64,000 bases of DNA from an uncultured Verrucomicrobiota bacterium (GCA_964464115.1 CAYXEW010000002.1:488-64487), one strand, 5' to 3'; positions 34,301-60,911 are shown, counted from the first letter of the stretch. The notes: generated from the sequence alone by a model not told the origin. Numbers and translations: made by a program.

Positions 34301-35505
34301 ATCATTTTCTTGGCGCTGCGGACCGTGTGCACGACACCCATTTCTTTCAGGCGGCGGATAATAAAAGGTTCAAACAGGGTCAGGGCCATCTTCTTCGGAA
34401 GCCCGCACTGATTGAGATTCAGATCCGGACCGATCACAATCACAGAGCGGCCCGAGTAATCCACACGTTTACCGAGAAGATTCTGGCGGAAGCGGCCCTG
34501 TTTGCCTTTCAGCATATCGCTGAGTGACTTCAGTGGACGGTTGCCGGCACCCGTCACGGCACGGCCGTGGCGTCCATTATCCATCAGGGCATCCACCGCT
34601 TCCTGGAGCATGCGTTTTTCATTGCGAATAATCACATCCGGCGTTTTGAGCTGGAGCAGGTTTTTCAATCGGTTGTTACGATTAATCACGCGGCGGTACA
34701 GATCATTCAAATCGGAGGTGGCAAAGCGGCCGCCTTCTAGCGGAACGAGGGGGCGCAAGTCGGGGGGAATCACCGGCAGCACCTCTAATATCATCCACTC
34801 GGGACGAGCATTGCTGGTGCGCAACCCGTCAATAATTTTCATGCGCTTCATGAGTTTTTTGCGCACCTGTTTACTGCGAGTGGCTTCCATGGCTGCCTCT
34901 ATAGCTTCAACTTCGGCATCCATATCCATATTCGCCATCAGTTCGCGTACACCTTCAGCCCCCATCAGCGCCTCAAACGATTCACCGTAGTTATCAACGG
35001 CTTCCCGATATTCCAGTTCACTGAGCAACTGTTTTTCCTTTAAAGGCGTATCGCCGGGATCAATAACCACGTAGTCCTCGTAATAGAGCACGCGTTCCAG
35101 TTCTCGCATGGTAATATCCAGCACTAAGCCCATGCGGCTCGGCGTACTTTTATAGAACCATATATGGGATACCGGAACGGCCAGTTCAATGTGCCCCATT
35201 CGTTCACGGCGAACACGCGAAAGCGTCACTTCTACGCCACAGCGGTCACAAATAACACCCTTATGCTTAATGCGTTTGTACTTACCGCAACTGCATTCCC
35301 AATCTTTTGTCGGCCCGAAAATACGCTCGCAAAAGAGGCCGCCCTTTTCCGGCTTGAATGTGCGGTAATTGATCGTCTCCGGATTTTTAACTTCGCCATG
35401 ACTCCAGGAGCGCATCACTTCCGGAGAGGCCAGTGTAATACTGACCGTATCAAAACTTGTATCTCTAACACCTAATATTTCAGCTGTTCTGGTATTTTCA
35501 GACAT
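31363..35505 (-). CDS. rpoC: DNA-directed RNA polymerase beta' subunit
   Basis: 1380 aa with NADFDGD active site and zinc-binding motifs. Confidence 0.97.
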
Positions 35506-35529
35506 ATCGACAGGCCTCTTTTTTTAAAA

Positions 35530-38500
35530 TTAATGCTGTTCCCGGTTTACCTTGATATCCAGCCCCAAACTCTGCATCTCTTTCATAAGCACATTAAAGG
35601 ATTCTGGGGTGCCGGATTCGAGGATGTTATCCCCTTTCACAATCGACTCGTATATACGTGTTCGACCGGCAATATCATCACTCTTAACGGTAAGAATTTC
35701 CTGCAGGGCATAAGCTGCACCATAGGCCTCCAACGCCCAGACTTCCATTTCACCGAAACGCTGTCCTCCATACTGCGCTTTACCACCCAGCGGCTGCTGA
35801 GTGACCAGCGAATAGGGACCGACAGCGCGGGCGTGAATTTTATCTGTAACCAGGTGGTGAAGTTTCAACATATAAATCATGCCGACGACGACATGCTGGT
35901 CAAACTGGTCACCTGTGCGTCCGTCATAGAGCAGTGTCTTGCCATGCGGGAAGCCCTCTTTGTTTAATTCAGCTTTATCCACCAGCTCGTTAATCTGATT
36001 TTCTGAAATACCGTCAAATACGGGTGTTGCTATATGAATACCCAGCTTATGACAGGCCCAGCCCAAATGCGTTTCGAGCACCTGACCCAGATTCATTCGC
36101 GATGGCACACCCAGTGGGTTGAGAATAATTTCCACCGGCGTTCCATCCGGAAGAAACGGCATATCCGCTTCCGGCACAATACGGGCCACGACACCTTTGT
36201 TTCCGTGCCGACCGGCTATCTTATCGCCAACTGACATCTTTTTCTTTGTGGCGACGTACACCTTTACCTGCTTAAGAATGCCGGCATCCACATCGTCGCC
36301 GCTGTCGAGTCGATCGATTGCGGACTGTTCATCAACATCAATATCGGCAAACTTACTGTTAAAATCACCGATAATGCCCTGAATCTTTATCTGTATGGGA
36401 CTCGGATCAATCTCGATATGCTCGCGATTCGCCGTCAATTTTCGCAGCAGTGTTTTTGTGATTTTACGGTTCGCAGGAATAATGACTTCATCGGTTTCGA
36501 TATTCATCACATCCAGCGGGATTTTTTCACCGAGTAAAATATTACTCAACGCTTCAGTTAGATTATCGCTCAGTTGCTGCCGCTTTTCCTTGAATTCATC
36601 TTCAACCTGCTTTTTCTGCTTTTTTCGTTCCCGGGCGGTCATTTTTTCCTGTTTGATTTCCGAGCGAGTGGTCTCTTTGATATCCATTACAATACCATAA
36701 GTACCACTGGGGACGCGCAACGATGTATCGCGCACATCGGCCGCTTTTTCACCAAAAATGGCTCTAAGCAGACGTTCTTCCGGGGCCAGTTCCGTCTCAC
36801 TTTTAGGTGTGATTTTACCCACTAAGATGTCGCCGGGTTTAACCTCGGCGCCGATGCGCACCACCCCGCGATGGGTGAGGTTCTTCAGGGCTTCTTCACC
36901 GACATTCGGTATGTCCCGCGTAATCTCTTCGGGACCCAACTTTGTATCCCGCGCGCCGCATTCAAATTCATCCACATGAATAGAGGTGTATACATCCTCT
37001 CGAACGAGTTTCTCACTAATGATAATGGCATCCTCAAAGTTATACCCGCACCAGGACATGAAGGCGACCAGCACGTTTCGACCAAGCGATAGCTCACCCT
37101 GGTCAGTAGAGGGTCCGTCGGCCAGCACACTGCCTGTTGCAACCTTGTCCCCCACTCTGACAATCGGCTTCTGATTGAAACACGTACCCGCATTCGAGCG
37201 CATGAATTTTCTTAAATCATAGATCGTGTAATCGCTCTCCAGTGTTTTCTTTGACGGAATCTCTCCGTCTTTGGAAACAATGATTTTCTGAGCCGATACG
37301 TATGCCACTTTACCCGCTGCTTCGGCGACCACCATGACGCGCGAATCTTTTGCCACGCGTCCTTCCAGACCTGTGCCGACGTAGGGTCGCTCGGCACAAA
37401 GCAGAGGGACGGACTGACGCTGCATGTTGGATCCCATGAGGGCTCTGTTGGCATCATCGTGTTCCAGGAAGGGAATTAAACCCGCGGCTATACTGACCAG
37501 CTGTTTCGGAGAAACATCCATGTAGTCAACGCGATCCGACGGAACCTCGAGAAAGTCGCCCTTGTAACGTACGGAAACCAAATCGCGAATAAACTGTCCC
37601 TTTTCATCAATCGGCGCGTTGGCCTGGGCAATGACATATTTCTCTTCACGGTCACCGGACAAATAATGTACTTCATCCGTAACCCGCCCCTTGATGACTT
37701 TGCGGTACGGGCTTTCAATGAAGCCGAAATCATTGATGCGGGCATAGACACTCAAGGAGGAAATGAGGCCGATATTCGGCCCTTCGGGAGTTTCGATAGG
37801 ACATATGCGACCGTAATGACTGCTGTGGACATCGCGCACTTCAAATCCCGCGCGTTCACGACTGAGACCGCCCGGACCGAGTGCACTGAGACGTCTCTTA
37901 TGTGTGAGCTCAGACAGCGGGTTCGTCTGGTCCATAAATTGGCTCAACTGACTGCGCCCGAAAAAGTCGCGAATAACCGAAGAGAGTGCTTTCGGGTTAA
38001 TCAGCTTTTGTGGTGTCAGTTTTTCAACCGTCGTATCAAAAATGGTCATGCGTTCGCGAACCAACCGCTCTGTTCGCGCCAGACCGACACGACATTGCCC
38101 TTCGAGCAGTTCTCCGACCGTGCGCACGCGCCGGCTGCCGAGATGGTCAATATCGTCCAGTGTTCCTTCGCCATTACGGAGATTAATTAAATAGCGGATG
38201 CCCTCAATCACATCCTCTTTCTCTAGCGTACGGCTTTCGCTGGTGGACTCCATATTCAGCTTCTGCTGAATTTTGTAGCGTCCCACACGGCTTAAGTCAT
38301 AACGGCGCTCATCAAAGAAGACGCGCTTGAGCATTTGACGGGCATTTGAGACGGTCGGCGGATCGCCCGGACGCAGCTTTTGGTAAAGATCTTTCAGCGC
38401 TTCCTCTTCCGTACGCGTCGGGTCTTTAATAATGCTTTTCAGAAAAAGTCCATCATCCCAGCTCACATCTACCACATTAATCTTGGAATAACCTGCCGCT

Positions 38501-39288
38501 TTAATTTGCTTCACGAGTTCTTCCGTCAGCGGCTCGTAGGCGCGTGCCAAAACACTCTGCGAATCGGCGTCAACCGCATCTTCCCGCAAGACGCGGTTAG
38601 CAATCTTATCCTCTGACACTTTACCTTTCAGCGACAGGGTGTCAAACGTGTAATAGAGTTCCAAAAGCGCATCATTAGTACTGTACCCCAGTGCACGCAA
38701 AAAGGTGGGGGCCAGGAATTTGCGGCGCCGGCGCTTACGATCCAGATAAACGTAGAGTAGTTCCGATGTGTCAAACTGAATTTCGAGCCATGAACCGCGA
38801 TCGGGTATAATGCGAAAGGAATAGAGCAGCGAGCCATTAGTATGCAAGGACGTCTCAAAACAGATCCCTGGGGAGCGGTGCAACTGGCTGACCACTACGC
38901 GTTCAGCACCGTTCACAATAAAGGTTCCGCGGTCGGTCATCAGAGGGATGTCCCCCATGAACACCTCTTCCTCACGGACCTGATTGCCCTCTTTCAAGCG
39001 AAAGGTCACATAGAGGGGTGCGTTAAAGGATTCACCTTCACGCAGGCATTCGAGAGCTCCGAACTTAGGTTCTTTGATTTCATACTTAACGAAATCCAGC
39101 ATACACTGACCGTCGTAACTCTCGATCGGGAACACTTCTTTCAAAACCGCTTGCAAGCCCACCGCTTTACGGCGGGAAGGCGCAATACCGAGTTGCAGAA
39201 AGTCTTTATAGGATAATGTCTGCGATTCAATTAAATCCGGGGGTTCTATTACATCTACTAACTGTCCATAACTAATACGTTCACTCAT
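35530..39288 (-). CDS. rpoB: DNA-directed RNA polymerase beta subunit
   Basis: About 1250 aa. Start placed at MSERISYGQ after GAGGG; the ORF extends to 39330. Confidence 0.97.
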
Positions 39289-39355
39289 AAGAATCCCTCT
39301 GGATGTGGTACCCTTCACTAAACCCAACAAATCTACCCACTACAGAAAAGAGCGC

Positions 39356-42367: not shown

Positions 42368-42444
42368 TGGCAGGTCAGGAGGGACTCGAACCCCCAACCC
42401 TCGGTTTTGGAGACCGATGCTCTGCCAGGTTGAGCTACTGACCT
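42368..42444 (-). tRNA. tRNA-Trp (anticodon CCA)
   Basis: Manual fold: acceptor AGGTCAG/CTGACCT, anticodon loop CTCCAAA, T-loop GGTTCGAGTCC, encoded 3' CCA. Canonical position between tuf and secE. Confidence 0.85.
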
Positions 42445-42705
42445 ATGCGAAATTTATTTCGTCTCCCGGTGCAGCGTGTGCTCCCTGTCAAAGGGACAGA
42501 ATTTTTTCAGCTCCAATCGACCGGGCGTGTTTTTTTTGTTTTTGGTCGATGTATAATTCCTACGCTTACACTTCGTACAAGCTAACGTTATAATATCTCT
42601 CGGCACAATTCACTCCTACCTGTCGGCTTCTGATCGGTCACCGCCATTAAAGACAGTCAAAGACCCATTCCCCAGAATGGGCCTTTGCTGCAGCCATCAC
42701 CTGTA

Positions 42706-43914
42706 CTATTCGACGATCTCGGTTACGCGACCGGCTCCAACCGTGCGACCGCCTTCACGAATAGCAAAACGCATGAATTGCTCCATGGCGATCGGTGTGA
42801 TCAGTTGTACATCCACGGCTATATTGTCACCCGGCATGACCATTTCCACACCTTCGGGCAATGTAATATCACCCGTCACATCCGTCGTTCGGAAGTAGAA
42901 CTGAGGGCGATACCCTTTGAAGAATGGCGTGTGGCGGCCGCCTTCTTCTTTGCTCAACACGTATACTTCAGCTTTAAACTTGGTGTGCGGTGTGATCGAA
43001 CCCGGCTTGGCCAGCACCTGCCCGCGCTCGACATCTTCTTTCTTGATACCGCGCAGTAGGCAGCCAATATTATCGCCAGCTTGACCCTGATCCAGTAGCT
43101 TGCGGAACATTTCCACGCCTGTCACTGTAGTCTTGACCGTATCTTTCAAACCGACAATTTCGATTTCCTCGCCAACTTTCACAATACCGCGCTCAACTCG
43201 ACCAGTCACCACCGTGCCACGACCCTCAATGGAAAAGACGTCTTCAATCGGCATCAGGAAAGGCTTGTCTGTTTCACGTTCCGGCTCCGGAATGTAGGAG
43301 TCCAGCGCGTCCATTAATTCCTGTATGCACTTGGCATCTTCATGATCCGGTGCGGGCGCTTGAATCGCCTTGAGGGCAGAACCGCGAATGACCGGCGTAT
43401 CGTCTCCGGGATACTCATATTTGCTAAGCAGCTCACGCACTTCAAGTTCTACGAGATCCAGCAACTCCGGATCATCGACCGTGTCACATTTATTCAGAAA
43501 CACGACAACACGCGGAACGCCCACCTGGCGGGCGAGCAGAATATGCTCACGCGTCTGCGGCATCGGACCGTCCGATGCACTCACGACGAGAATAGCGCCG
43601 TCCATCTGAGCTGCACCCGTAATCATGTTCTTCACATAGTCCGCGTGACCGGGACAGTCGACGTGAGCATAATGGCGAGCGTCAGACTCGTACTCGACGT
43701 GCGATGTCGCAATCGTCAAAATCTTTGTAGCATCACGGCGACCCTGGGATTCAGAGGCCTTGGCAACTTCATCGTATGCGACATAATGGGCCATACCCTT
43801 GTCGCCCTGCACCTTTGTAATCGATGCCGTCAGCGTTGTTTTGCCGTGATCAACGTGACCAATCGTACCTACGTTTACATGTGGTTTTGTTCTTTCGAAT
43901 TTATCCTTCGCCAT
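42706..43914 (-). CDS. tuf: Elongation factor Tu
   Basis: 402 aa with GHVDHGKTT. Confidence 0.97.
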
Positions 43915-44009
43915 CGGATTCCTCCTGGACTTGTGTCTGTTTAATTTACTTTATTCACTCTATACGTTTACTAAAATTAGCATTCTTAACTGACCGGCAG
44001 TATAAAGAC

Positions 44010-44085
44010 TGGAGCCCACGAGCGGGATTGAACCGCTGACCTCATCCTTACCAAGGATGTGCTCTACCAACTGAGCTACATGGGC
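44010..44085 (-). tRNA. tRNA-Thr (anticodon GGT)
   Basis: Manual fold: acceptor GCCCATG/CGTGGGC, anticodon loop CTTGGTAAG, T-loop GGTTCAATCC, encoded 3' CCA. The thrT-tuf arrangement is conserved. Confidence 0.85.
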
Positions 44086-46370: not shown

Positions 46371-47555
46371 ATGAAAATATTGATCATTAACGCGGGCAGT
46401 TCATCAGCAAAGTTCACCTTGTACGAAGAGGAATCTCTTTTAGCCAAAGGTCTCATTGAAAGGCTGGGAACGCCTGAAGCGCGGCTCAAGTACTCCAACA
46501 ACCGGAACCAGAAAATCGAAAAGAGCGTAACAGCCAACTCTTTTGAGGCCGCTATACGCCATGCCTGTCTCGCCTTGGACGATAAGGAAACAGGCGTCAT
46601 TGAAAAACTGACCGATATCGATGCCATTGGCCACCGCGTTGTGCACGGGGGTGACGCCATATCTTCCTCAGCCCGTATCACCCCGGGAATCAAACAGATC
46701 ATCCGTGACAACTTTTCTCTGGCACCGCTCCATAACCCGCCCAACATGGAAGGCATCGAAGCCTGTGAGGCTCTCTTTCCCAATACGCCCATGGTAGCCG
46801 TCTTTGACACAGCCTTCCACCAGTCGATGCCCGCGGCCGCCTATACGTATGCCCTGCCCGCAGAACTTGCCGAGAAACACAAGATCAGACGATATGGTTT
46901 TCACGGGACATCGCATCACTACGTTACCATCCAGGCGGCGAACTTACTGGGCCGACGAGTTGATGAAGTAAAACTGATCACCACCCATCTGGGCAACGGG
47001 TGCAGCATTACCGCTGTTAATAAAGGTAATGTGGAGGACACCAGTATGGGGCTGACACCGCTGGAAGGACTGGTTATGGGAACGCGAAGCGGCGATATCG
47101 ATCCGGGTGTCGTACTGTTTCTCCTGCGCTTGGGATACAGCACAGATGACGTGGATAAGCTGCTGAATAAATCCAGCGGCATTAAAGGTGTAGCCCGCAA
47201 TGGCAGCTCCGATATGCGCGATCTGATCGATTCCGTGGAACAGGGAGATAAACAGGCCCAGCTCGCTTTTGATATACTGCTCCATCGACTGGTTAAGTAT
47301 ATTGGGGCTTACGCCGCCGTCTTGAACGGTTTTGATGCGCTGGTTTTCACGGCCGGAATCGGTGAGAATTGTTCAAAACTGAGAGCATCAGTCTGTAATC
47401 GGCTAGGCTGCTTGGGTATCACTCTGGACCCCGCGAAGAATAAAGCGAATGAACACATCATTTCGAAGGAATCCTCCAGCCCTATTGTAATGGCTGTTCC
47501 CACTAATGAGGAACTGATGATTGCCAGAGAAACGATGAGAGTCCTTGAGGCTTAA
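46371..47555 (+). CDS. ackA: Acetate kinase
   Basis: 394 aa with ASKHA fold motifs. Confidence 0.95.
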   Translation: MKILIINAGSSSAKFTLYEEESLLAKGLIERLGTPEARLKYSNNRNQKIEKSVTANSFEAAIRHACLALDDKETGVIEKLTDIDAIGHRVVHGGDAISSSARITPGIKQIIRDNFSLAPLHNPPNMEGIEACEALFPNTPMVAVFDTAFHQSMPAAAYTYALPAELAEKHKIRRYGFHGTSHHYVTIQAANLLGRRVDEVKLITTHLGNGCSITAVNKGNVEDTSMGLTPLEGLVMGTRSGDIDPGVVLFLLRLGYSTDDVDKLLNKSSGIKGVARNGSSDMRDLIDSVEQGDKQAQLAFDILLHRLVKYIGAYAAVLNGFDALVFTAGIGENCSKLRASVCNRLGCLGITLDPAKNKANEHIISKESSSPIVMAVPTNEELMIARETMRVLEA

Positions 47556-47579
47556 CGTAATATAGAAAGGTAGTGCCGT

Positions 47580-48584
47580 ATGAGTTTATTGGATGACATG
47601 ATCCCCAAAGCACAGCAGGCAGGAAAAACGATCGTACTCCCTGAAGGCCATGATCCCCGCATTATCGATGCTGCGAAACAAATCGCTGAAAAAATGATCG
47701 CAAAAGTCATCGTGTTAGCCGATGCCGATGAGCTGAACGACATAGATAGTTCGATACAGTCGGATCACCTATGCATTTGGAATTATAAAACATCAGAACA
47801 CCGGGAACAGCTCGGGGAAGCTTTTCAGGTTGTGCGCGTGCATAAAGGTATTACCCGCGAGCAGGCTATGGAAGCGATGGATGATCGCCTTTATTTTGCC
47901 AATATGATGATACGAAATGGACTGGCTGATGGTTTAGTTGCGGGCAGTATTGCATCCACTGCTGATATGCTCAGAGCTTCTTTTCAGTGCATTGGTACTG
48001 CTGATGGCATCAACATTGCCAGCAGTTCATTTCTGATGGAACTGGCCTCCCCCTCGCCTGCAGGCGATCGGGTTCTCGCCTTCGCAGACTGTGCCGTCAA
48101 CCCGAATCCTTCCGCAGATGAATTAGTTGATATCGCTCTGTCAACGGCACAGACACACACGGCATTGGTCGGAACGCAGCCCAGAGTCGCCTTTCTTTCT
48201 TTCTCCAGCCGCGGCAGTGCCAAACATGAGCTGGTAGAGAAAGTCCAAACGGCTACCGCTAAAGCAAAGGAAACTGTCGCTGCAAAGGGCCTGGATATGC
48301 TGATTGACGGTGAGCTTCAACTCGATGCTGCCATTGTCCCTAAGGTGGCGGCCAAGAAATGTGCTGACAGTCCGCTCAAAGGCGCCGCCAATATTCTCAT
48401 CTTTCCGGATCTTCAGGCCGGCAATATTGGTTATAAACTGACAGAGCGACTGGCCGGCGCCAAAGCTCTCGGGCCGGTACTCCAAGGGTTGGCGAAGCCG
48501 GTAAATGATTTATCGCGTGGTTGCAGCGTTGACGACATCATAGGTGTTGCCGTCATCACCGCCTGCCAAGCCGCAGTGGAATAA
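47580..48584 (+). CDS. pta: Phosphate acetyltransferase (short form, PTA_PTB domain only)
   Basis: 334 aa, 24 nt after ackA. Confidence 0.9.
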   Translation: MSLLDDMIPKAQQAGKTIVLPEGHDPRIIDAAKQIAEKMIAKVIVLADADELNDIDSSIQSDHLCIWNYKTSEHREQLGEAFQVVRVHKGITREQAMEAMDDRLYFANMMIRNGLADGLVAGSIASTADMLRASFQCIGTADGINIASSSFLMELASPSPAGDRVLAFADCAVNPNPSADELVDIALSTAQTHTALVGTQPRVAFLSFSSRGSAKHELVEKVQTATAKAKETVAAKGLDMLIDGELQLDAAIVPKVAAKKCADSPLKGAANILIFPDLQAGNIGYKLTERLAGAKALGPVLQGLAKPVNDLSRGCSVDDIIGVAVITACQAAVE

Positions 48585-51329: not shown

Positions 51330-52055
51330 TCAATTCTCCGATTTTTCGCTCACATTAACCTGAAACGGGTGGACATTAGCAAACCTGATTCAGAAAGGCA
51401 AGTTTCCCTTGAACATCACACCATTGGATTTTCAGCAACGTACCACTGGAAATCGACCGAAGCCTCTATCAGCAGTCCAAAGCTCTAAATACGGTGATGT
51501 TTGCAGAGTGCAGCAATCCTGGCGTCATAAATCCTGGCGCCGAGCACCTAACCTTGATTAACGGTATTCATGAAACAATCCCAATAGCCGGTTCCTTGTA
51601 GAATTTCGTGGAAGATGAAAAATAGAGACGGTTAATGGAAAGGTCCATTGATGCGGCAACTAAATGAATCATGAGTAATCTGGGCATACTCAGCTATTCG
51701 TGGCCCCCGCAGGGATTTTCTTGCCGAAATCTGGTTTTCGGCAAGTGTCTGCACAGCAGCGAATGGTGTCTGTTCCCGTCCGCGGGAACCGGTCAATCGG
51801 ATCGCTCCGAAGTCTCGAGAGCGCTCCGTGGGGTCGGAGCGCGATATTGCGTCGAATGTTTTGCTTTCAGGGGGCGAGCGTTTTCTAGGTGCAACATTCA
51901 TTGCTCATTGCTGTTCATCATATACCATTCGTTATGGCGTTTTTTATGAATAATGCAGACTACGTATTACTTGCAGTAAAGCCATCGCTGCGGGATGGCT
52001 TAGTTGGCTTAATTATCCACCTCGGAGCGGTGGATATACGTATCTGAACGCGTCA

Positions 52056-53015
52056 TTACGGGAGTGTGACAGCAACCAATTTTGCTCTGACAAATCCAAG
52101 CATCAGGTCATAATCTGCCTGTAGGGGCAGAAGGTGCCACGGGTGCTTCCAGGGCAGGATATCAACTCTCTTTTCCGCCTCAATATACCGCTCAACATTG
52201 ATCACCGCCGCGACCAGGTGCTCCAGTTTTGACTTCTCCGGCAGCGTCGCCTTCGGCATCGCTCTGCACTGTACGGCCTTCCATTCACGGCCCATTGCGT
52301 GCAGCTCAACAGGTTTAACGGTCAGCGTAAACGGATACAATACTCCGCCGATGTTCAGCTCAAGGCGGGGTGATTTTTCAGCGGTCCCTTCAGGCGGGGA
52401 AGCTGCGACACGGGCATCCAGGTAATCTAGCACAGGCTCTACATCCTGTCCGCGACTCAGGAAGTCCTTTGCCTCGGGCGGCTCGTCTTGTAACTCCTGT
52501 TTAACAGCGTCATACGCAAAGAATTCAGGGATTGAGTCATGGAGCAGAGCATAACTGCATGTTTTCCTCATACGCGTTTTTGTAAAAAACACCCTCACAT
52601 ATTCGTCTATTTTTTTGGCATAGAAGACAGTGCGCATATCGCTTTTATCGACGGCCGTTATAAGCCGGTCATCCATATGAACAAAATTCTCGTCTTCGAA
52701 ATCATCATGCCCTGATGTAAGCCTAACATCGACGAGATAGACAGGTGTATACTCCTGCTTCGGGTCATACTGCCAGAGTCCCTCCGCAATCTCGACTGTT
52801 GCCTGCCCCACGTGAAAGAGGCGCAGAAACAGAAATCGATAGTCAAATTTGTACTGGAGCGTCAATAGGGGTGTCTTTTCAGCTACGCGCGTCTCAAGAC
52901 TTCGGGTCACTCGGTTCGACCAATCTGTAAACGGGTCTGACGCGGCATGGAGATGCTGAAGACAGCAGCCACACAATACCGACAAGAAAGGTAATATATA
53001 CCGCATTTTCATCAA
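52056..53015 (-). CDS. Secreted hypothetical protein (DUF3108-like?), last gene of the envelope operon
   Basis: Signal peptide. Start overlaps the upstream gene's stop by 4 nt. Confidence 0.5.
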   Translation of the reverse strand: MMKMRYILPFLSVLCGCCLQHLHAASDPFTDWSNRVTRSLETRVAEKTPLLTLQYKFDYRFLFLRLFHVGQATVEIAEGLWQYDPKQEYTPVYLVDVRLTSGHDDFEDENFVHMDDRLITAVDKSDMRTVFYAKKIDEYVRVFFTKTRMRKTCSYALLHDSIPEFFAYDAVKQELQDEPPEAKDFLSRGQDVEPVLDYLDARVAASPPEGTAEKSPRLELNIGGVLYPFTLTVKPVELHAMGREWKAVQCRAMPKATLPEKSKLEHLVAAVINVERYIEAEKRVDILPWKHPWHLLPLQADYDLMLGFVRAKLVAVTLP

Positions 53016-53950
53016 AATCGATACTGCAGGTAAAGTCGCGTCTGGTGCCTTGGATCAGGCTTTAAAGACAGGTCGGCATCTACTGCCTGCAAGCTGAGTG
53101 ACAGCCTGTCTCGATTGTAACGATGGGCGGCATCTATGCCACCATATATACTGCCGGAGTACCAGGTAAGCTCAAAAAAGGTAATAACAGAGAAGGCACC
53201 CCACTGCTCCTCTTCGGCCGTACTGATCATCCCGTAGATAAAGATACCGTTTAGAATCATAGAGCGAATGCCATTGGCATATTCTCCGGAATAGAAATAG
53301 CCAAGACCGGGGATGAGCCCCAAAAGTCCCCCTACAGCCGGTTTCTTATCGCGTCCCTCACGGTATTGAATAATGGCATCACGGGCACGACGGCCGGCAG
53401 CTGATTCGGGCAAGGACTTCAAAGCCTTCTCCGTCTTTCCACTGCGCATGAAGGATCCTGCAGTCCTGAGAGCTATATATTGAGATAGCTCATCGGAGTC
53501 CGGCTCAACGCTTTCATAATAGAACCGGGCAGACTCATAATCGTTCAGCTCTAACGCTATATCCCCACGAAGCAGCATGGCGGCGTTTTCAATACTCACC
53601 GATGCATCTTCTGCACCATCGAGCATGGATTGAGCCCTACCATAATCTTTATCCATGTAATAGTTATAACCCGCCATCCACAAATACGAACTCTTACCTT
53701 CTTCATCAGTGGCATCGACGGCCATCCGGCGGAATTCCAGTGCAGATAAATTAAAATCACCTTCTTCCGACAGCGACCAGGCTAGCTCATTTTGACTGTC
53801 TGCCACGACCGAAATACTGCAACATATCCAAAACAAGGAGAGCAAAATATAACCCATAGCATGGTGAGAAGGCAGGGTTGTCGGGCACAGACAGCCACGA
53901 CGTTTTGAACCAATGCAAACTACCCGATTTCGCAAAAACTTATTCATCAT
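53012..53950 (-). CDS. Hypothetical envelope protein with TPR-like periplasmic region, hydrophobic Gly/Tyr-rich segment (GLLGLIPGLGYFYSG) and C-terminal ...LYLQYRF
   Basis: ATGA overlaps with both neighbours. Terminal aromatic residue is OMP-like. Confidence 0.5.
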   Translation of the reverse strand: MMNKFLRNRVVCIGSKRRGCLCPTTLPSHHAMGYILLSLFWICCSISVVADSQNELAWSLSEEGDFNLSALEFRRMAVDATDEEGKSSYLWMAGYNYYMDKDYGRAQSMLDGAEDASVSIENAAMLLRGDIALELNDYESARFYYESVEPDSDELSQYIALRTAGSFMRSGKTEKALKSLPESAAGRRARDAIIQYREGRDKKPAVGGLLGLIPGLGYFYSGEYANGIRSMILNGIFIYGMISTAEEEQWGAFSVITFFELTWYSGSIYGGIDAAHRYNRDRLSLSLQAVDADLSLKPDPRHQTRLYLQYRF

Positions 53951-54777
53951 CGTTTCCTCATCCAGAAATCATGATCTTCAACGAGGTCGAGAACACGCTC
54001 TCTCCCGCCCACTATGACAACTTTCTTCTTTTGCTGCACGACGGAGGGTTCCCGGTAGAAGCGATCAGCCTGCATAGCAAAACCGAGCAATCCATGTTTT
54101 TTGCAGGCTTGCATGAAATACTCTGAACAACTGGGCTCGCAGGAGCAGCGCATGGCAATGGCCGAGGAAATCTGTGATCGATAAAAGGTCACAATCCACT
54201 TTGCCACAGGACGCCCAACCGAAAGCCCCTTGCGCTGATGAATGCGTGACTCCGCAAACAGCTCGCCATACCAGAAGTCGCGAGTTGAATTCACCTGCAT
54301 AAAGGTGTCAGCATGGTCTTGCTTGAGTGCCGGATATTCTTCCGTCAAAAGGAATAGACTGCATGCACTATGTAAAAAAAGATCCTGGTTTTGAGCATGT
54401 TTGAATGCCCGCTCGAAGGCCCCGAATGCATCAGCTATCCGACCCCTCCTCCACATTTCACGACCGTAGAGGTAAGCGGCCATCGACATCTCCTCTGGTC
54501 GGTCCGTTTGTGATGCAAGATTGATTAGTGTTGCAAGGGCATGATCCATTGAACGGCCGAGCATCAACCTAGCTTCAGCCCTGATCAGCAGGGCCTTTGG
54601 GCTGTTTACACCCGCTTGAATCATGCGGGAGCTCTCCAGCAGACAGGCTTCCCAGTCTCCCTCTTCATACAGTTCAAGTAACAGCTCTTCAGCAACCGCA
54701 TAAGGCGACAAAAAAAGGATTCCGGCCATTACAGCCGGAATCCTTTTTCTAATCAACTTAGCAACAGTGGAAATCAA
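53947..54777 (-). CDS. Fusion protein: signal peptide + TPR-like domain + C-terminal YidD-like domain (membrane protein insertion efficiency factor fold)
   Basis: C-terminal YRSQISSAIAMRCSCEPSCSEYFMQACKKHGLLGFAMQADRFYR aligns to the YidD core (Y..IS....CRF.P[ST]CS.Y...A....G...G). Confidence 0.6.
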   Translation of the reverse strand: MISTVAKLIRKRIPAVMAGILFLSPYAVAEELLLELYEEGDWEACLLESSRMIQAGVNSPKALLIRAEARLMLGRSMDHALATLINLASQTDRPEEMSMAAYLYGREMWRRGRIADAFGAFERAFKHAQNQDLFLHSACSLFLLTEEYPALKQDHADTFMQVNSTRDFWYGELFAESRIHQRKGLSVGRPVAKWIVTFYRSQISSAIAMRCSCEPSCSEYFMQACKKHGLLGFAMQADRFYREPSVVQQKKKVVIVGGRERVLDLVEDHDFWMRKR

Positions 54778-55067
54778 TAGTATGATGCACCGTATTTTTC
54801 TGCGTAGTCGGCAGACGTCATGCCGTCGTATCCTTCAACACCTGTAATAATGGCAAACACAATATTTACGTAGGGAACCAGCATAACCCATTCACGCCAG
54901 TGGATTTCTTTGCCCTCATTATAATCGCCGGCAGCGCGAACGCCAAAACAGCAACCAGAAATAAGACCCATAATTCCGCCACGACCTGAACCCTTGGCTT
55001 CAGCAACCGGAGCAACAACCAGTGTCAACATTACGGCCACCATCAACAGTGCTACAATTTTCTTCAT
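54774..55067 (-). CDS. Small secreted/membrane protein (signal peptide + 2 hydrophobic segments, CC pair)
   Basis: 97 aa, coupled by ATGA overlap to the YidD-fusion gene. Confidence 0.45.
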   Translation of the reverse strand: MKKIVALLMVAVMLTLVVAPVAEAKGSGRGGIMGLISGCCFGVRAAGDYNEGKEIHWREWVMLVPYVNIVFAIITGVEGYDGMTSADYAEKYGASYY

Positions 55068-55163
55068 ACTCTACCCTCCATATTTAGGTTTGCACTACTT
55101 CGTAATCCTAGTAAACAGATCATTTAATATCAAATAAAGATATGCATTATTTTTACCAACAGC

Positions 55164-55937
55164 TCACTCATATATTTCCTTAAAGGTCTTCACATAGTCC
55201 ACCCCTTTGAGGAAATGATCAGCGATGAACAAGCCTTCCGCAATCGGCTCATTTACGGTCAGATCACTAACCCTCAGCGTTTCACTGCCATCTTCTTTAC
55301 CTATCAGAATCTGTGCATCATGCTTTAAAGGCATCCACAAACCGGACATGATCTCTTTGTACTCTGAATAATCATACCTTGCCTGCATGCGACCCTGCGC
55401 ATCTCCTTCATAGTAGAGAATAGAGGATAGCCTGTTACGCTCATCTGTATTGACTTCTGCGAAAAAACCGTCCCCTTTATAACCGAATGACAGGCCGCCG
55501 GCATCTTTTGGTTTGAGCAACTCTTCTTCCAAACCCTTCAACTTGAGCAGATGATCCATCGGGGTACCCGGCACGCGGCGCAATTCCGCGATCTGCTCCC
55601 CGCTCAACTGCTCAATAGGCCTGGAAAAACCTTTGGGTTCGCCTGTAATATAATAGTAAAAATGTTTGCCATCGGCAATGATCCGCCTCTTTAGAGGTGC
55701 AATATTGTCCACATGTATAAAGTCTCCCCGCTTCCAGTAGATGCGACTCAGGCGGCGCACCTTTTGGTCCCCCACTTCCGAAACCCGACGTATTTTACAG
55801 GACAATGATTCGATGCGGTTATAATTTACGAGCAATCGGTCAATGGCCGTCTCTGCATGAACAGAAATGCAACATAACAAGAGGAGTAAAACGAAACTCC
55901 GAACGGCCTTATTCATTTTCAACAAGTTGTTGCTCAT
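55164..55937 (-). CDS. LolA/LolB-fold outer-membrane lipoprotein carrier-like protein
   Basis: Signal peptide plus RIIADGKHFYYYI-type LolA-like beta-barrel pattern. Start trimmed to MSNNLL; the ORF begins at GTG 55967. Confidence 0.5.
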   Translation of the reverse strand: MSNNLLKMNKAVRSFVLLLLLCCISVHAETAIDRLLVNYNRIESLSCKIRRVSEVGDQKVRRLSRIYWKRGDFIHVDNIAPLKRRIIADGKHFYYYITGEPKGFSRPIEQLSGEQIAELRRVPGTPMDHLLKLKGLEEELLKPKDAGGLSFGYKGDGFFAEVNTDERNRLSSILYYEGDAQGRMQARYDYSEYKEIMSGLWMPLKHDAQILIGKEDGSETLRVSDLTVNEPIAEGLFIADHFLKGVDYVKTFKEIYE

Positions 55938-56129
55938 TTTGCACCCCCAATCTGCACACTCTTTCACCTGTTAACTCAATATATTGCTGTTTTATATCAT
56001 CACTGCAAAAGGCTGACCAGATTAATTCACAGAACCTGCCCATAGTTGACTGCATTCTTTGTGAAACATTAGCTGTTTGCCGGTCAGAAAACTTAAGACT
56101 TTGGCCCAAAGCGGAACTTGTCAACGAAC

Positions 56130-56723: not shown

Positions 56724-57914
56724 TCACGGCTTCGTCAACACAATTCTGTAGACGCGCTCGGTTTCACTCGAAGGCTCGGGGCGTCCCGGGCCGCCCAGGT
56801 CGGCCCATGTGCAAACCACGGAACCGGCGCGTACGGTATCGGCATGGGCCCAGGGTCCGAGAAGGTCGTCCGCCCATTCAATGTCATAGGTCGCGCCCAC
56901 AATGCCTGTCCAACTGATGGCCGTCGTCCGCGAAACCGACACCACAGCGAGCGGGCGATGGTTCCGGTAGATGTTTCCAAACGATCCGGCGGCCCAGACA
57001 TCACCCGGACCTGAACATACCAGACCGTACACCGTGTTGATGTTGGTCGAAAACGTCACATGCGCGCCATCGTAGAAGTACAGGCCTCGATCAACACCGT
57101 TATACCCAAGCCAGACGTTCTCCCCGTTCCAGGAATCCACGATGGCCACGTTTATTGTGTTGGTGCATCCATCAATCGGAATGGTGCTCCACGTCTCGCC
57201 GTTGAAATGGGCCAAGAACCCCTCATCGCCTGCAATCCACACGTCACACACGCTCCTGGCGTGCACGTCGCGCAGATATCGGGAAGGACTCATTTTAAAT
57301 ACCGCTTGCGTGCTCCAGGCGCTGCCGTCATAAAAGTACACAACATTGCTGCCGCTCGGAGGGCTCCCCACGGCCCAGATGTGTTGGGAATCAAGTCCGT
57401 CAATAGCGCTCATTATAGCGGAACCCACGTCGCATTCAATCGCCCAGTCCAGCCCGCCATTGGTCGATCGGATGATATTTCCTGACATGGCGCACAGCCA
57501 CACATTACTCGGGTCGGAAGCATACACATCGTAGACATACGTGCCCACCGCACTCGGCAAATCGCTGAGCTTGGACCAACTACCGGCATCCCGGAAAAAC
57601 ACCGAGTTGGTCGTCGACACAGAACTGCGTCCAACCGTCCAGACATGGTCGACGTCAAGTGCGTAAGCGCCCCGCAGCTCTCCCTGGTCTCCATCGTAAA
57701 AGGCCTGATACTCCTTTGCCCAGGAGGTTCCATCGAACCGATAAATCGCGCCACTCGAAGAATTCCCCCCCATGAACCACACATTGCTCGCGTCCGCAGC
57801 GGCCGATCCCTGCGGATTTAAGTTCGGAATCGTATCAAACAGCTCCCACTCCCCAGCAGAAACCATACACGCAAAAACCCCCGCAACAAACAACAGCATA
57901 AACAACTTTTTCAT
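56724..57914 (-). CDS. Secreted beta-propeller repeat protein (BNR/Ycf48-like repeats)
   Basis: Signal peptide plus about 7 repeats of the (N/D)VW(A/L)xGxxGxI...DGxxW pattern. GC about 58%. Confidence 0.55.
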   Translation of the reverse strand: MKKLFMLLFVAGVFACMVSAGEWELFDTIPNLNPQGSAAADASNVWFMGGNSSSGAIYRFDGTSWAKEYQAFYDGDQGELRGAYALDVDHVWTVGRSSVSTTNSVFFRDAGSWSKLSDLPSAVGTYVYDVYASDPSNVWLCAMSGNIIRSTNGGLDWAIECDVGSAIMSAIDGLDSQHIWAVGSPPSGSNVVYFYDGSAWSTQAVFKMSPSRYLRDVHARSVCDVWIAGDEGFLAHFNGETWSTIPIDGCTNTINVAIVDSWNGENVWLGYNGVDRGLYFYDGAHVTFSTNINTVYGLVCSGPGDVWAAGSFGNIYRNHRPLAVVSVSRTTAISWTGIVGATYDIEWADDLLGPWAHADTVRAGSVVCTWADLGGPGRPEPSSETERVYRIVLTKP

Positions 57915-58319: not shown

Positions 58320-59537
58320 ATGAAACGGATCTATGAGGAGCTTCTGCGGGAGCATTTTTCTACCGAACGGCAGATGGCCTTCGTGGCCGGCCCGCGTCAG
58401 GTCGGGAAGTCCACCCTGATTGACAGCTTGTGCGGGGAGAACGATTTTTCATTGAACTGGGATTGTCCGAACGATCGGCGCGCAATTCTGAAGGGATCTG
58501 ATTTCATTATTGAGCAGTACGGATTCACCGACTTGGGGGCTTCCCGGTCACGGCGGCTGATCGCGTTTGATGAAATTCATAAATTCCGGCAATGGAAAAA
58601 TTTTCTGAAAGGCTTTTTTGATGCCTGCGAGGACACTGCGTCGGTTCTGGTGACCGGCCGTGCGCGGCTCAATATCTATAAACGGGGCGGGGACAGCCTG
58701 ATGGGGCGCTATTTTCTGTATCGCATGCATCCGCTTTCAGTTGGAGAACTGGTGAACCGTCCGTACGATCCCTGTATTGTCCGGGCTCCCGGAGCGATAT
58801 CAGACGCGGAGTTTGACGCACTTTATCGCTTCGGCGGCTTTCCGGAGCCGTTTCTCCGGGGGACGGATCGCTTCTACAACCGTTGGATCGGATTGCGCAG
58901 CGAGCAGATGTTCCGGGAGGACTTGCGCGATTTGACCCGCGTTCAGGAGATTGATCAGCTCATGACCCTTTCGCAGATTATGCTCTCACAGGCAGGAGCC
59001 ATGGTCAACTACAGCGCATTGGCCAATGAAGTCTGTGTTTCGGTCGATACCATTCGCCGCTGGATGACGCTGCTGGAATCCATCTACTTTTCATTTCGGA
59101 TACGACCCTGGTTCCGGAATGTTTCCAAATCGTTGCGCAAGCAGCCGAAGGTCTATCCGTGGGACTGGAGTCCGGTCAAAGACGAGGGAGCCCGAATTGA
59201 GAGCTTTACGGCATCCCATCTCTTCAAAGCGGTCCATTGGTGGAACGATCTGGGGCTGGGAAAGTTTGAGCTTCATTTCATTCGCGATACAGCGCAACAC
59301 GAGGTCGATTTTCTGATATCGAAAGACGCTGAACCCTGGATGATAGTTGAGGTCAAAAAATCCCCAAAAGAACCGATCAACCTGGCATTGAAACATTTTG
59401 CGCAGGTTCTGAATGTACCGCATGCCTTTCAGGCGGTGATGGAAATGGACGCCGTGGATGCCGACTGTTTTGAGGCATCCCGTCCCGGCACACCATTTCG
59501 GGTTCCGCTTCGGACCTTACTGTCTCAACTTGTTTAA
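58320..59537 (+). CDS. AAA+ ATPase of the COG1373 / AAA_14 + DUF4143 family
   Basis: N-terminal GPRQVGKST Walker A, about 400 aa, typical architecture of the uncharacterised solitary-ATPase family. Confidence 0.7.
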   Translation: MKRIYEELLREHFSTERQMAFVAGPRQVGKSTLIDSLCGENDFSLNWDCPNDRRAILKGSDFIIEQYGFTDLGASRSRRLIAFDEIHKFRQWKNFLKGFFDACEDTASVLVTGRARLNIYKRGGDSLMGRYFLYRMHPLSVGELVNRPYDPCIVRAPGAISDAEFDALYRFGGFPEPFLRGTDRFYNRWIGLRSEQMFREDLRDLTRVQEIDQLMTLSQIMLSQAGAMVNYSALANEVCVSVDTIRRWMTLLESIYFSFRIRPWFRNVSKSLRKQPKVYPWDWSPVKDEGARIESFTASHLFKAVHWWNDLGLGKFELHFIRDTAQHEVDFLISKDAEPWMIVEVKKSPKEPINLALKHFAQVLNVPHAFQAVMEMDAVDADCFEASRPGTPFRVPLRTLLSQLV

Positions 59538-59705: not shown

Positions 59706-60911
59706 CTAAAGTTGGGCTAGAATCTCGGGAAATGGCTCTAGAGCCTGCTTGAGAATACCCAGTGATTTGGCAATGGCAACTCCGTAGTTCGTAATAGGAA
59801 CGCCGGCCGCCTGGCATCGCAAAATGCGTGACAATACCAGCTTTCGATTCAATGTGCAGGACCCGCAGTGAATGACGAGCTTGTATCGCTCCATGTTCTC
59901 TGGAAAATCCAATCCCTGCACATGGGTGAACTCCAATTTTCCACCGACGTACTGCGTCAACCAGCGTGGAATTTTAATACGGCCAATATCTTCACCGATC
60001 GGATGGTGAGTGCAGGCTTCTGCCACCAGTATGTGATCGCCAGGCTTTACTGAGTCAATAGTTTGAGCACCGTCAACAAAGGCCTTCAGGTCGCCTTTCA
60101 ACCGGGCAAAAAGAATAGAAAACGATGTCATTTTTGACTGCGGCGGCATGTCGCCTGCCACTTTAAGAAAGGCCTGTGAATCGGTTATGACGAGTGCGGG
60201 AGGCTCTTTTAATCGATCCAGCGCATCCCGCATTTCACGCTCTTTTACCACCAGCGTGTAACAGTCATGATCCAGTATGTCGCGGATAGTCTGCACCTGA
60301 GGCAAAATCAAACGACCGCGCGGCGCTTCCAAATCAATGGGAACGACCAGCATCAGCAGCGAGCCCGGCGATACTAAATCTCCCACAATGGGCTGTTGAA
60401 TTAGTTTTTCATCGGGGACAGACTTGATCAGTGCCTCCCGCAAATCCAGCAACCCCGTCCCCTGCTTTGCCGATGTGAGCACACAGGGCACTTCCGGTGA
60501 AACCATAGCCCCATCCGACGGTTCAGCGAGGTCTGATTTATTCCAGACCACGATCACCGGTGTATTTCTTGATGCAAGCTCGCTCAGCAGATCCTTTTCA
60601 AAATCACCCCATTGAAAGCCTTCCGTTACAATCAGAGCCACATCCGTTCGATCCAGAGCCCTGCGGGTTTTTTCAATGCGCATCTGACCGAGCGCTCCGA
60701 CATCATCAATACCGGCTGTATCAATAAAGAGAACAGGCCCCAGCGGAAGCAGCTCCATCGGCTTTTCCACAGGATCCGTTGTTGTCCCCGCCTGCTCGGA
60801 AACAATGGAGACGGATTGATTCGTCAGGGCGTTGAGCAGTGATGACTTGCCGACATTTCGTCTGCCGAAAATGCCGATATGCAATCTCATTCCTTTGGGT
60901 GTCTTTTGCAT
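59706..60911 (-). CDS. hydF: [FeFe]-hydrogenase H-cluster maturation GTPase HydF
   Basis: N-terminal GRRNVGKSS GTPase domain plus C-terminal CxH...HCGSC FeS-binding motif. About 400 aa. Confidence 0.8.
   Translation of the reverse strand: MQKTPKGMRLHIGIFGRRNVGKSSLLNALTNQSVSIVSEQAGTTTDPVEKPMELLPLGPVLFIDTAGIDDVGALGQMRIEKTRRALDRTDVALIVTEGFQWGDFEKDLLSELASRNTPVIVVWNKSDLAEPSDGAMVSPEVPCVLTSAKQGTGLLDLREALIKSVPDEKLIQQPIVGDLVSPGSLLMLVVPIDLEAPRGRLILPQVQTIRDILDHDCYTLVVKEREMRDALDRLKEPPALVITDSQAFLKVAGDMPPQSKMTSFSILFARLKGDLKAFVDGAQTIDSVKPGDHILVAEACTHHPIGEDIGRIKIPRWLTQYVGGKLEFTHVQGLDFPENMERYKLVIHCGSCTLNRKLVLSRILRCQAAGVPITNYGVAIAKSLGILKQALEPFPEILAQL

Follow-up and report, generated by a model that had tools for sequence, protein, structure and literature searches.

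YidD proteins (PF01809/TIGR00278) are near-universal in bacteria; their mechanism is poorly understood and the knockout phenotype is mild. The canonical protein stands alone, has about 70-90 amino acids (aa) and no export signal, works at the cytoplasmic face and carries a three-cysteine motif, Y[QR]..IS...C.F.P[ST]CS.Y...A....G..G....R..RC.P. Among envelope proteins, the lipoproteins SlyB and YfgH form glycine-zipper helical hairpins in the outer membrane (bioRxiv 10.64898/2026.06.08.730324, 10.64898/2025.12.22.696046), LolA3 is a larger orphan paralogue that does not bind LolB and whose function is unknown (PMC13103446), and DUF3108 has been described as an outer-membrane YmcC-fold barrel (PMC4364669). 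The present analysis deals with five genes (g1 to g5) on the minus strand of a 64,000-nucleotide (nt) stretch of DNA from an uncultured Verrucomicrobiota bacterium (GCA_964464115.1, CAYXEW010000002.1:488-64487; hereafter the window, with positions counted from its first letter). An original prediction, made from the sequence alone, saw in them an undescribed envelope operon in which a YidD-like domain, fused to a tetratricopeptide repeat (TPR) module, is encoded next to LolA-like and outer-membrane-protein-like partners. The locus proved to be a conserved cell-envelope operon, and our tentative reading is that it encodes a periplasmic-side machine for the assembly or anchoring of proteins that carry the g2 domain. 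YidD, the LolA fold and TPR were known already; new here are the export predicted for YidD, the partners found with it, the g2 domain together with its role as the C-terminal end of exported proteins, and the distribution over phyla. A literature search for YidD together with LolA, TPR or DUF3108 found no paper on the module or on the g2 and g4 domains, in agreement with the prediction that the module was undescribed.

Residues 192-245 of the g3 protein passed both PF01809 (38.7 bits; cut-off 27) and TIGR00278 (40.9 bits; cut-off 40), so that its YidD-like C-terminus was borne out above the two curated thresholds. The pattern of the domain in this family is YR..IS..I..RCSxxPSCSEY...A..KHGLLG....ADRF.REP, with Y199, R200, R210, C211, P215, S216, C217, S218, E219, Y220, G229, G232, D238, R239, F240, R242, E243 and P244 invariant. 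It keeps the YR..IS, RC..P[ST]CS.Y and G..G motifs of YidD and differs from the canonical form in the third conserved cysteine, which is replaced (RE.P instead of RC.P, within ADRF.REP) in all 17 sequences from the Planctomycetota-Verrucomicrobiota-Chlamydiota (PVC) group; the first two cysteines and the motif around them are invariant. Further differences are an additional conserved C-terminal tail beyond the YidD domain, DP..DHDFW (invariant D..DHD.W), a fusion to about 150 aa of TPR in the PVC form, the resulting size (260-276 aa) and a predicted N-terminal export signal or anchor. An N-terminal hydrophobic segment was present in 56 of 67 module YidD proteins of the PVC group and in 35 of 42 of the Marinimicrobia type described below.

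The stretch of g3 between the signal and the YidD domain gave a weak TPR match and, like the N-terminal region of g4, has the helix-turn-helix repeats of a TPR solenoid. In its first 37 columns, the g3 alignment shows homology to the beginning of the g4 TPR domain (hhalign, 93.8%); direct BLASTP of g3 against g4 gave nothing, the shared N-terminal motif being visible in the family profiles only. This homology indicates that the PVC fusion joins YidD to a TPR of the g4 type which, by the usual fusion argument, argues for an interaction between YidD and g4. The neighbours of g3 are g2, g4, g1, g5, serA, NMO and a gene for an unrelated exported protein, instead of rnpA or yidC, and the same was seen in related loci, where the module YidD adjoins g2 and g4. 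A YidD domain fused to a TPR module behind an export signal, outside the rnpA-yidD-yidC context, is thus what the locus contains, as had been proposed.

Relatives were gathered by a word-indexed search, which gave 17 relatives for g3 and 655 for g4, and then by a scan of one genome per species; open reading frames (ORFs) were called and family and domain-specific hidden Markov models (HMMs) were applied. The scan located g3 relatives in 62 loci, whose named phyla all belong to the PVC group (Kiritimatiellota, Lentisphaerota/Victivallales and 'Verrucomicrobiota'), a few being labelled 'uncultured bacterium'. Among them are the cultured Pontiella sulfatireligans F21 and an assembly of Victivallis vadensis. 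Identity between the window species and these relatives is at most about 44%, and judging from protein sequence they would place the organism of the window among the Kiritimatiellota/Lentisphaerota. In the 33 complete PVC loci (at least 3 kb on both sides), g4 was present in 33/33, g2 in 32/33 (one to three tandem copies), g1 within 4 kb in 23/33 and DUF3108 in 7/33. The usual order is g1-g2(n)-g3-g4, with g2-g1-g3-g4 and g2-g3-g4-g1 as variants. The flanking genes vary between loci, which indicates that the module itself is the conserved unit. The original prediction had suggested a survey of the gene neighbourhood in related genomes; conservation was confirmed for the core of g2, YidD and g4, but not for the five genes as one conserved entity, since g1 lies within 4 kb in only 23 of these 33 loci and g5 has a homologue in a single other genome. 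In uncultured Lentisphaerae, two to three g3-g4 pairs stand within one 12-kb stretch (L042, 1817-12127; L034, 1-4399), on both strands and with extra g1 and g2 genes. These repeated pairs suggest that the module has been duplicated and has diversified.

The core was also found outside the PVC group. Metagenome contigs were scanned with the g2-like fusion proteins only, and the 64 loci returned were searched with the domain HMMs. Of the 13 loci with full flanks, 10 show a YidD gene, together with one or two genes of the g4-like kind, immediately 3' of the g2-like gene. The YidD genes of this Marinimicrobia type are unfused and encode proteins of about 130-150 aa in which the domain spans roughly aa 55-107; they match PF01809 with 68-75 bits and keep the full YidD motif, including RC.P (RCNP/RCHY). 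The accompanying g4-like genes (about 280-310 aa) carry the g4 membrane domain. For the sampled short-YidD members whose source is named, the annotation is YidD and the genome is one of Marinimicrobia, Neomarinimicrobiota or Fidelibacterota, and three short-YidD loci (L115, L116 and L126) carry a g1 homologue as well. On these sequence comparisons, the TPR-YidD fusion is a lineage-specific (PVC) version of a wider module made up of a g2-like protein, a short exported YidD and a g4-like protein, whose core recurs in at least three bacterial phyla. An exported 197-aa family was observed in 17 Marinimicrobia-type loci (e.g. L069:1317-1910, L075:1665-2258, L079:8955-9539 and L127:3338-3976), inside or just upstream of the module; in several loci, such as L069 and L075, its gene separates the LpoB-g2 fusion gene from the tandem g2 gene. 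The family has the motifs RxLGLTxH, NAPYFPxKL and YxDCAxQPA and no Pfam or PDB relative; DUF3108 was considered for it and rejected (hhalign, 0.5%; no PDB match).

The most conserved component of the module is g2, with a mean identity of 61% in the family alignment. Its type-I signal peptide, which ends in AEA, is followed by a domain of about 70 aa. In it, a Gly-zipper segment with Gly at i/i+4 spacing and an invariant Cys-Cys precede an HWREW loop and a second hydrophobic segment, and the C-terminus is aromatic. The consensus is RGG.MGFIAGCCFGIRAG.AYNDGKEIHWREW..LIPYV.IVFAIWNGIDGANG.T..DYA..YGA..Y, in which G30, G31, G38, C39, C40, G42, R44, N50, G52, W57, R58 and W60 are invariant, and the Cys-Cys is kept in 79-80 of the 81 PVC domains. 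No relative of the family was found in Pfam, NCBIfam or PDB, where the profile search gave one chance match, and the Pfam Gly-zipper families had no match at E up to 1 when compared with 41 g2 members. As a small, predicted helical hairpin with Gly at i, i+4 spacing, g2 resembles SlyB and YfgH, which provide a precedent for outer-membrane Gly-zipper hairpins that need a periplasmic carrier. It differs from them in the lack of sequence similarity to any Pfam Gly-zipper family, in the type-I signal peptide that stands in place of an N-terminal lipid anchor, and in the invariant Cys-Cys and the N[DE]G..I..[RE]EW loop, which are specific to g2.

The g2 domain is not confined to stand-alone proteins. 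An exhaustive phmmer search against 1.84 billion representatives gave 78 clusters. Some contain tandem copies; others are fusions, with one or two g2-like domains at the extreme C-terminus of longer signal-peptide proteins. The passengers are LpoB/CsgG-like domains, PEGA domains or regions of low complexity, and g2 is always C-terminal; one of the fusion clusters comes from Candidatus Marinimicrobia. On two long contigs (L070 and L072), no module was found within 8 kb of the LpoB-type fusion genes. These fusions bear on another explanation of the locus, possible but doubtful, according to which the module would be a fixed inner-membrane complex, such as a channel, a transporter accessory or an envelope-spanning scaffold, with one to three g2 paralogues as structural Gly-zipper proteolipid-like subunits that assemble with g4 and g3, and with g1 as a loosely linked periplasmic partner. 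The strong conservation of g2 (61%) and its position almost always directly upstream of YidD agree with such a complex, as do an i/i+4 zipper of the kind typical of helix-helix packing in oligomers and a translational coupling that implies matched expression. However, the same domain is also found in tandem at the C-terminus of unrelated exported passenger domains, and some of the fusion genes are far from any module, which is more readily reconciled with a portable anchor or sorting domain than with a dedicated subunit.

Portable domains at the extreme C-terminus of diverse exported proteins are known from PEP-CTERM/exosortase, GlyGly-CTERM/rhombosortase, LPXTG/sortase and the C-terminal domain (CTD) of the type IX secretion system (T9SS). 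As in those systems, a few copies of the g2 domain are encoded next to a conserved machine of their own, and further copies are dispersed over the genome. Unlike them, the module has no protease or transpeptidase homologue, and the g2 domain is much larger (about 70 aa, often in tandem) and also exists as a highly conserved stand-alone protein.

The g4 protein consists of an N-terminal signal or anchor, a TPR region (aa ~55-198), a helical membrane domain (aa ~199-291) and a C-terminal beta-hairpin with a terminal Phe. Its AlphaFold model (49 sequences; pLDDT 89.7) has 13 helices and one two-strand hairpin: an N-terminal helix, the TPR helices (66-198), short helices (204-220), one helix at 224-246 and a long one at 250-291, with the hairpin at the C-terminus. 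The N-terminal hydrophobic segment comes after about 30 basic residues and could be a signal anchor, and the charge distribution is consistent with three predicted membrane passes and a cytoplasmic tail. The most conserved segment, DKKP..GGLLGLIPGLGY.YSGEYANG.RS.ILNG.FI.GM..TA...QWGAF..I.FFE.TWYSGSIYGGIDAAHRYN..R, marks a membrane domain for which there is no Pfam model (a scan of 28 members gave TPR or noise matches only). The fold search of g4 was dominated by generic TPR matches and gave nothing informative on the membrane domain. Matches to YfgM and PpiD, the periplasmic ancillary chaperones of the SecYEG translocon, did not reach the threshold and did not exceed those to generic TPR proteins; g4 differs from YfgM in the extra conserved multi-helix membrane domain and the beta-hairpin tail, and the module has no PpiD-like partner.

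The g4 product had been taken to be outer-membrane-protein-like on account of its aromatic C-terminus. This terminus is real: F312 is invariant in the 28-sequence alignment and conserved in at least 90% of the 49-sequence alignment, at the end of a tail LPLxxLxFxF. A beta-signal-like aromatic end does not by itself imply a barrel, and an outer-membrane beta-barrel was ruled out by the model, which is all-helical (TPR plus helical membrane domain) with only the short terminal hairpin as beta structure. The PVC g2 proteins (YGA..Y/F; 54777-54791) and g4 proteins (L.F.F; 53015-53035) both end in a conserved aromatic residue, the Marinimicrobia g2-like proteins end in EGLRK instead, and the Marinimicrobia g4-like proteins have varied tails with no conserved aromatic terminus. 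The PVC-specific terminal aromatics coincide with the lineages in which g1 and DUF3108 are common.

The g1 model obtained with AlphaFold2 (16 sequences; pLDDT 90.4, pTM 0.81) shows an unclosed beta-barrel with a helical lid, the LolA/LolB fold. Its larger size (about 240 aa), its extra strands and its best structural neighbours assign it to the LolA_like/LolA3/DUF1329 subgroup, in which the nearest paralogues are LolA3 of Porphyromonas gingivalis (9tp6), LolA_like (3bk5, PF17131) and DUF1329 (4z48). The identity of g1 to these proteins is 10-13%, and a gene context with YidD, g2 and g4 has not been reported for any of them. The window protein has no Pfam match and scores 16.6 bits with TIGR00547 (cut-off 112); sub-threshold LolA-clan matches were obtained for 8 of 35 family members, and the distant module homologue in L116 passes Pfam LolA (37.8 vs 23.6). 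The LolA-like character ascribed to g1 therefore stands as far as the fold is concerned, but not by sequence thresholds, and the presence of a LolA-superfamily protein in the same operon as the YidD fusion is supported.

The fifth gene is variable. No match to g5 was found in Pfam (E up to 1), NCBIfam or the PDB profiles, and among the fetched loci it has a homologue in one other genome only (L004, 26% identity), which carries an LGSC lipobox; from its sequence, g5 is possibly a lipoprotein. A DUF3108 search had been suggested as a check of the cluster and was negative for g5, since there was no Pfam match and hhalign against the module-linked DUF3108 proteins gave 0.5%; a LolA-like nature was likewise rejected (hhalign against the g1 family, 0.7%), the g5 profile used in both comparisons being weak (two sequences). 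DUF3108 (PF11306) is the gene abutting g4 in eight Pontiella-type loci (76 bits), and in L002 it lies upstream of g1.

These accessory proteins are the starting point of an explanation that we regard as rather unlikely, namely that the locus serves lipoprotein or lipid sorting, the former already raised in the original prediction, with g1 as a LolA-type carrier of acylated cargo to the outer membrane and g5 or DUF3108 as the acceptor there; g2 may itself be lipid-modified at [IL]-A-[GS]-C-C. The LolA/LolB/LolA3-type fold of g1, the frequent occurrence in the fifth slot of DUF3108, the described outer-membrane YmcC-fold barrel (PMC4364669), and the lipobox of the L004 homologue agree with it. 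So does a lipobox-like motif in g2 (54930-54965, residues ~35-46), in which [IL]-A-[GS] precedes the Cys-Cys and K/R-G-G lies ahead: the pattern R-G-G-x-M-G-F-I-A-G-C-C was found in 80 of 81 PVC domains, and the Marinimicrobia-type K-G-G-x-x-P-x-L-A-S-C-C in about 60 of 107. However, this motif comes after a separate cleavable signal peptide, so that ordinary lipoprotein processing should not apply, and the fusion proteins have it over 190 residues from the start of the chain, beyond the reach of known lipoprotein processing. Moreover, none of the lol genes (LolCDE, LolB), Lgt or Lsp was found in the locus (46-63 kb of the window examined), conservation is lowest for g1 and the fifth gene, and LolA3, the closest solved and characterised relative of g1, does not pair with LolB (PMC13103446).

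Gene content, domain and fold identities, conservation, fusions and gene linkage are shown by the analysis; for the periplasmic-side machine we infer the topology of the proteins, their assembly into a physical complex, their relationship to clients and the direction in which transport would run. Its invariant core would consist of one to three small, Sec-exported copies of g2, a YidD domain on the periplasmic side and one or two g4 proteins, to which a periplasmic LolA-superfamily protein (g1) and a variable fifth exported protein (DUF3108 in Pontiella-type genomes, g5 here) would be accessory. On the periplasmic side of the inner membrane, g3 and g4 would associate into a complex scaffolded by TPRs, in a position comparable to that of YfgM/PpiD at the Sec translocon, and this complex would use the membrane-active YidD domain to integrate, assemble or anchor g2-domain proteins, its clients being both the stand-alone g2 proteins and the larger exported proteins that end in g2 domains. 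The g1 protein might shield the hairpin, which is hydrophobic, or a lipid associated with it, and possibly take this cargo in the direction of the outer membrane; the link to this membrane comes from DUF3108 in the fifth slot and from the SlyB/YfgH precedent. A more specific version appears unlikely as a whole: g2 would be a new kind of portable domain for anchoring or sorting at the C-terminus, g4 and the exported YidD would be its dedicated insertase or assembly machine on the periplasmic side, and the PVC LolA-like protein (with DUF3108 or g5) would ferry the hairpin to the outer membrane.

Several points weigh against the assembly machine. The topology assigned to the module proteins comes from hydropathy and charge rules, and the hydrophobic stretches of g2 are short and rich in Gly and Pro, which leaves its membrane embedding putative. 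The 61% mean identity of g2 and its constant position in the operon are as compatible with a stoichiometric subunit as with a client. The YidD domain of the PVC proteins lacks, in the aligned sequences, the third conserved cysteine of the family and, as we know of no precedent for a periplasmic YidD, carrying the YidD function over to this compartment is an assumption. Finally, g1 is absent near 10 of the 33 complete PVC loci and from most Marinimicrobia loci, so that a carrier step is not essential to the core.

The arrangement of the genes is given in the table below. All five genes were confirmed, at the positions predicted, as co-directional ORFs and as gene calls in the annotation of the source contig (64,534 nt), which gives lengths of 267, 97, 260, 312 and 318 aa for g1 to g5. 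The original prediction had also described three ATGA start/stop overlaps. The one between g3 and g4 is present, whereas the g2/g3 junction (54777-54774) and the g4/g5 junction (53015-53012) both read TTGA. At the latter, the genes overlap by 1 nt or 4 nt, the annotated g5 ATG (53012-53010) giving the 1-nt overlap (TGATG). At the former, an overlap exists only if g3 starts at TTG 54777 (276 aa), the other options being TTG 54756 and the annotated ATG 54729 (260 aa). The N-termini of g3 homologues (MRTWR-IPGALPGILFF) align best with TTG 54756 (M-I-R-K-R-IPAVMAGILF), which leaves a 17-nt gap between g2 and g3, and the annotated ATG would drop the family-conserved basic n-region. The genes g3, g4 and g5 are thus tightly joined, and g2 and g3 are close but probably do not overlap. 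In related loci, 33 of 54 g3-g4 junctions can overlap, 25 by 4 nt and 8 by 1 nt, whereas the gaps are mostly 5-30 nt between g2 and g3 and usually 31-120 nt between g1 and g2; start-stop coupling of g3 and g4 is a conserved property. Signal peptides had been proposed for all five products: by hydropathy and charge rules each of the five has an N-terminal hydrophobic segment, but that of g4 could be the signal anchor mentioned above. Promoter and terminator scans gave background levels.

Table. Features of the operon (positions in the window).
Feature	Position	Strand	Length or start	Description
g1	55164-55967	minus	267 aa from GTG; 257 aa from alternative ATG at 55937	exported LolA-superfamily protein (predicted), accessory
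g1-g2 intergenic spacer	55068-55163	minus	96 nt	GGAGGG ribosome-binding site 6 nt before the g2 ATG; read from the sequence
g2	54774-55067	minus	97 aa	small exported protein (predicted), new domain family
g3	53947-54777	minus	276 aa from TTG at 54777	predicted export signal, TPR-like region, YidD domain and tail
YidD-family domain in g3	54043-54204	minus	aa 192-245	Pfam/NCBIfam match coordinates
g4	53012-53950	minus	312 aa	membrane TPR protein (predicted)
ATGA start/stop overlap g3/g4	53947-53950	minus		read from the sequence
g5	52056-53012 from ATG (ORF 52056-53015)	minus	318 aa	lineage-specific exported protein (predicted), variable fifth slot

Downstream of g5, the roughly 720 nt up to serA (51330-52055) contain no convincing ORF, no Rfam match at the gathering threshold and nothing that resembles a terminator of the operon. 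A gene for a 396-aa exported protein with a weak match to the Rax2 beta-propeller (29.0 bits vs 28.8) lies immediately upstream of the operon (56724-57914, minus strand) and is followed by a 119-aa ORF without matches; clustering of the genes around related modules showed neither as a conserved neighbour. An ATPase gene with AAA_14 and DUF4143 domains (58320-59537, plus strand) is also located upstream of the operon region. The other genes noted in the window (31363-39330, 42368-44085, 46371-48584 and 59706-60911) include two long ORFs of 1380 and 1266 aa, for which rpoC and rpoB are suggested by size alone, a 402-aa ORF, likely EF-Tu, flanked by tRNA-Trp and tRNA-Thr (the only two matches in the Rfam scan of the window), and the genes for acetate kinase, phosphotransacetylase and the [FeFe]-hydrogenase maturase HydF. 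The presence of hydF, ack-pta and serA in the flanks suggests an anaerobic fermenter.

This genomic setting also bears on the idea of a membrane-damaging or holin/haemolysin-like system, in which g2 would be a small pore-former and the YidD domain its membrane-active partner. PF01809 was historically named the haemolytic domain, and weak Phage_holin_2 matches were obtained for 6 of 41 g2 members (best E, 0.034). These matches are, however, far below threshold. The module is single-copy, its surroundings are housekeeping genes (serA, ack-pta, hydF), the neighbourhoods listed for related loci showed neither phage nor toxin-immunity nor mobile-element genes, and the spread over whole phyla resembles that of a core gene set. 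We therefore consider such a system very improbable.

The module presents a paralogous, predicted-exported YidD that is tied to specific partners and to a candidate client domain in a cultured organism; with defined partners, a candidate client and cultured organisms (Pontiella sulfatireligans F21 and Victivallis vadensis) at hand, the action of YidD becomes testable with defined substrates. The Gly-zipper/Cys-Cys domain of g2 and the membrane domain of g4, neither of which had a family model, have been defined, and the set of domains is common to Kiritimatiellota, Lentisphaerota and Marinimicrobia/Fidelibacterota, in which envelope biogenesis is largely unexplored. If the version in which the hairpin is ferried to the outer membrane is true, the module would be a protein-only counterpart of the Lol pathway and would give the YidD domain its first assigned molecular role outside the cytoplasm. 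If the LolA-like partner carries a helical hairpin and not acyl chains, the cargo range of the LolA fold would be wider.

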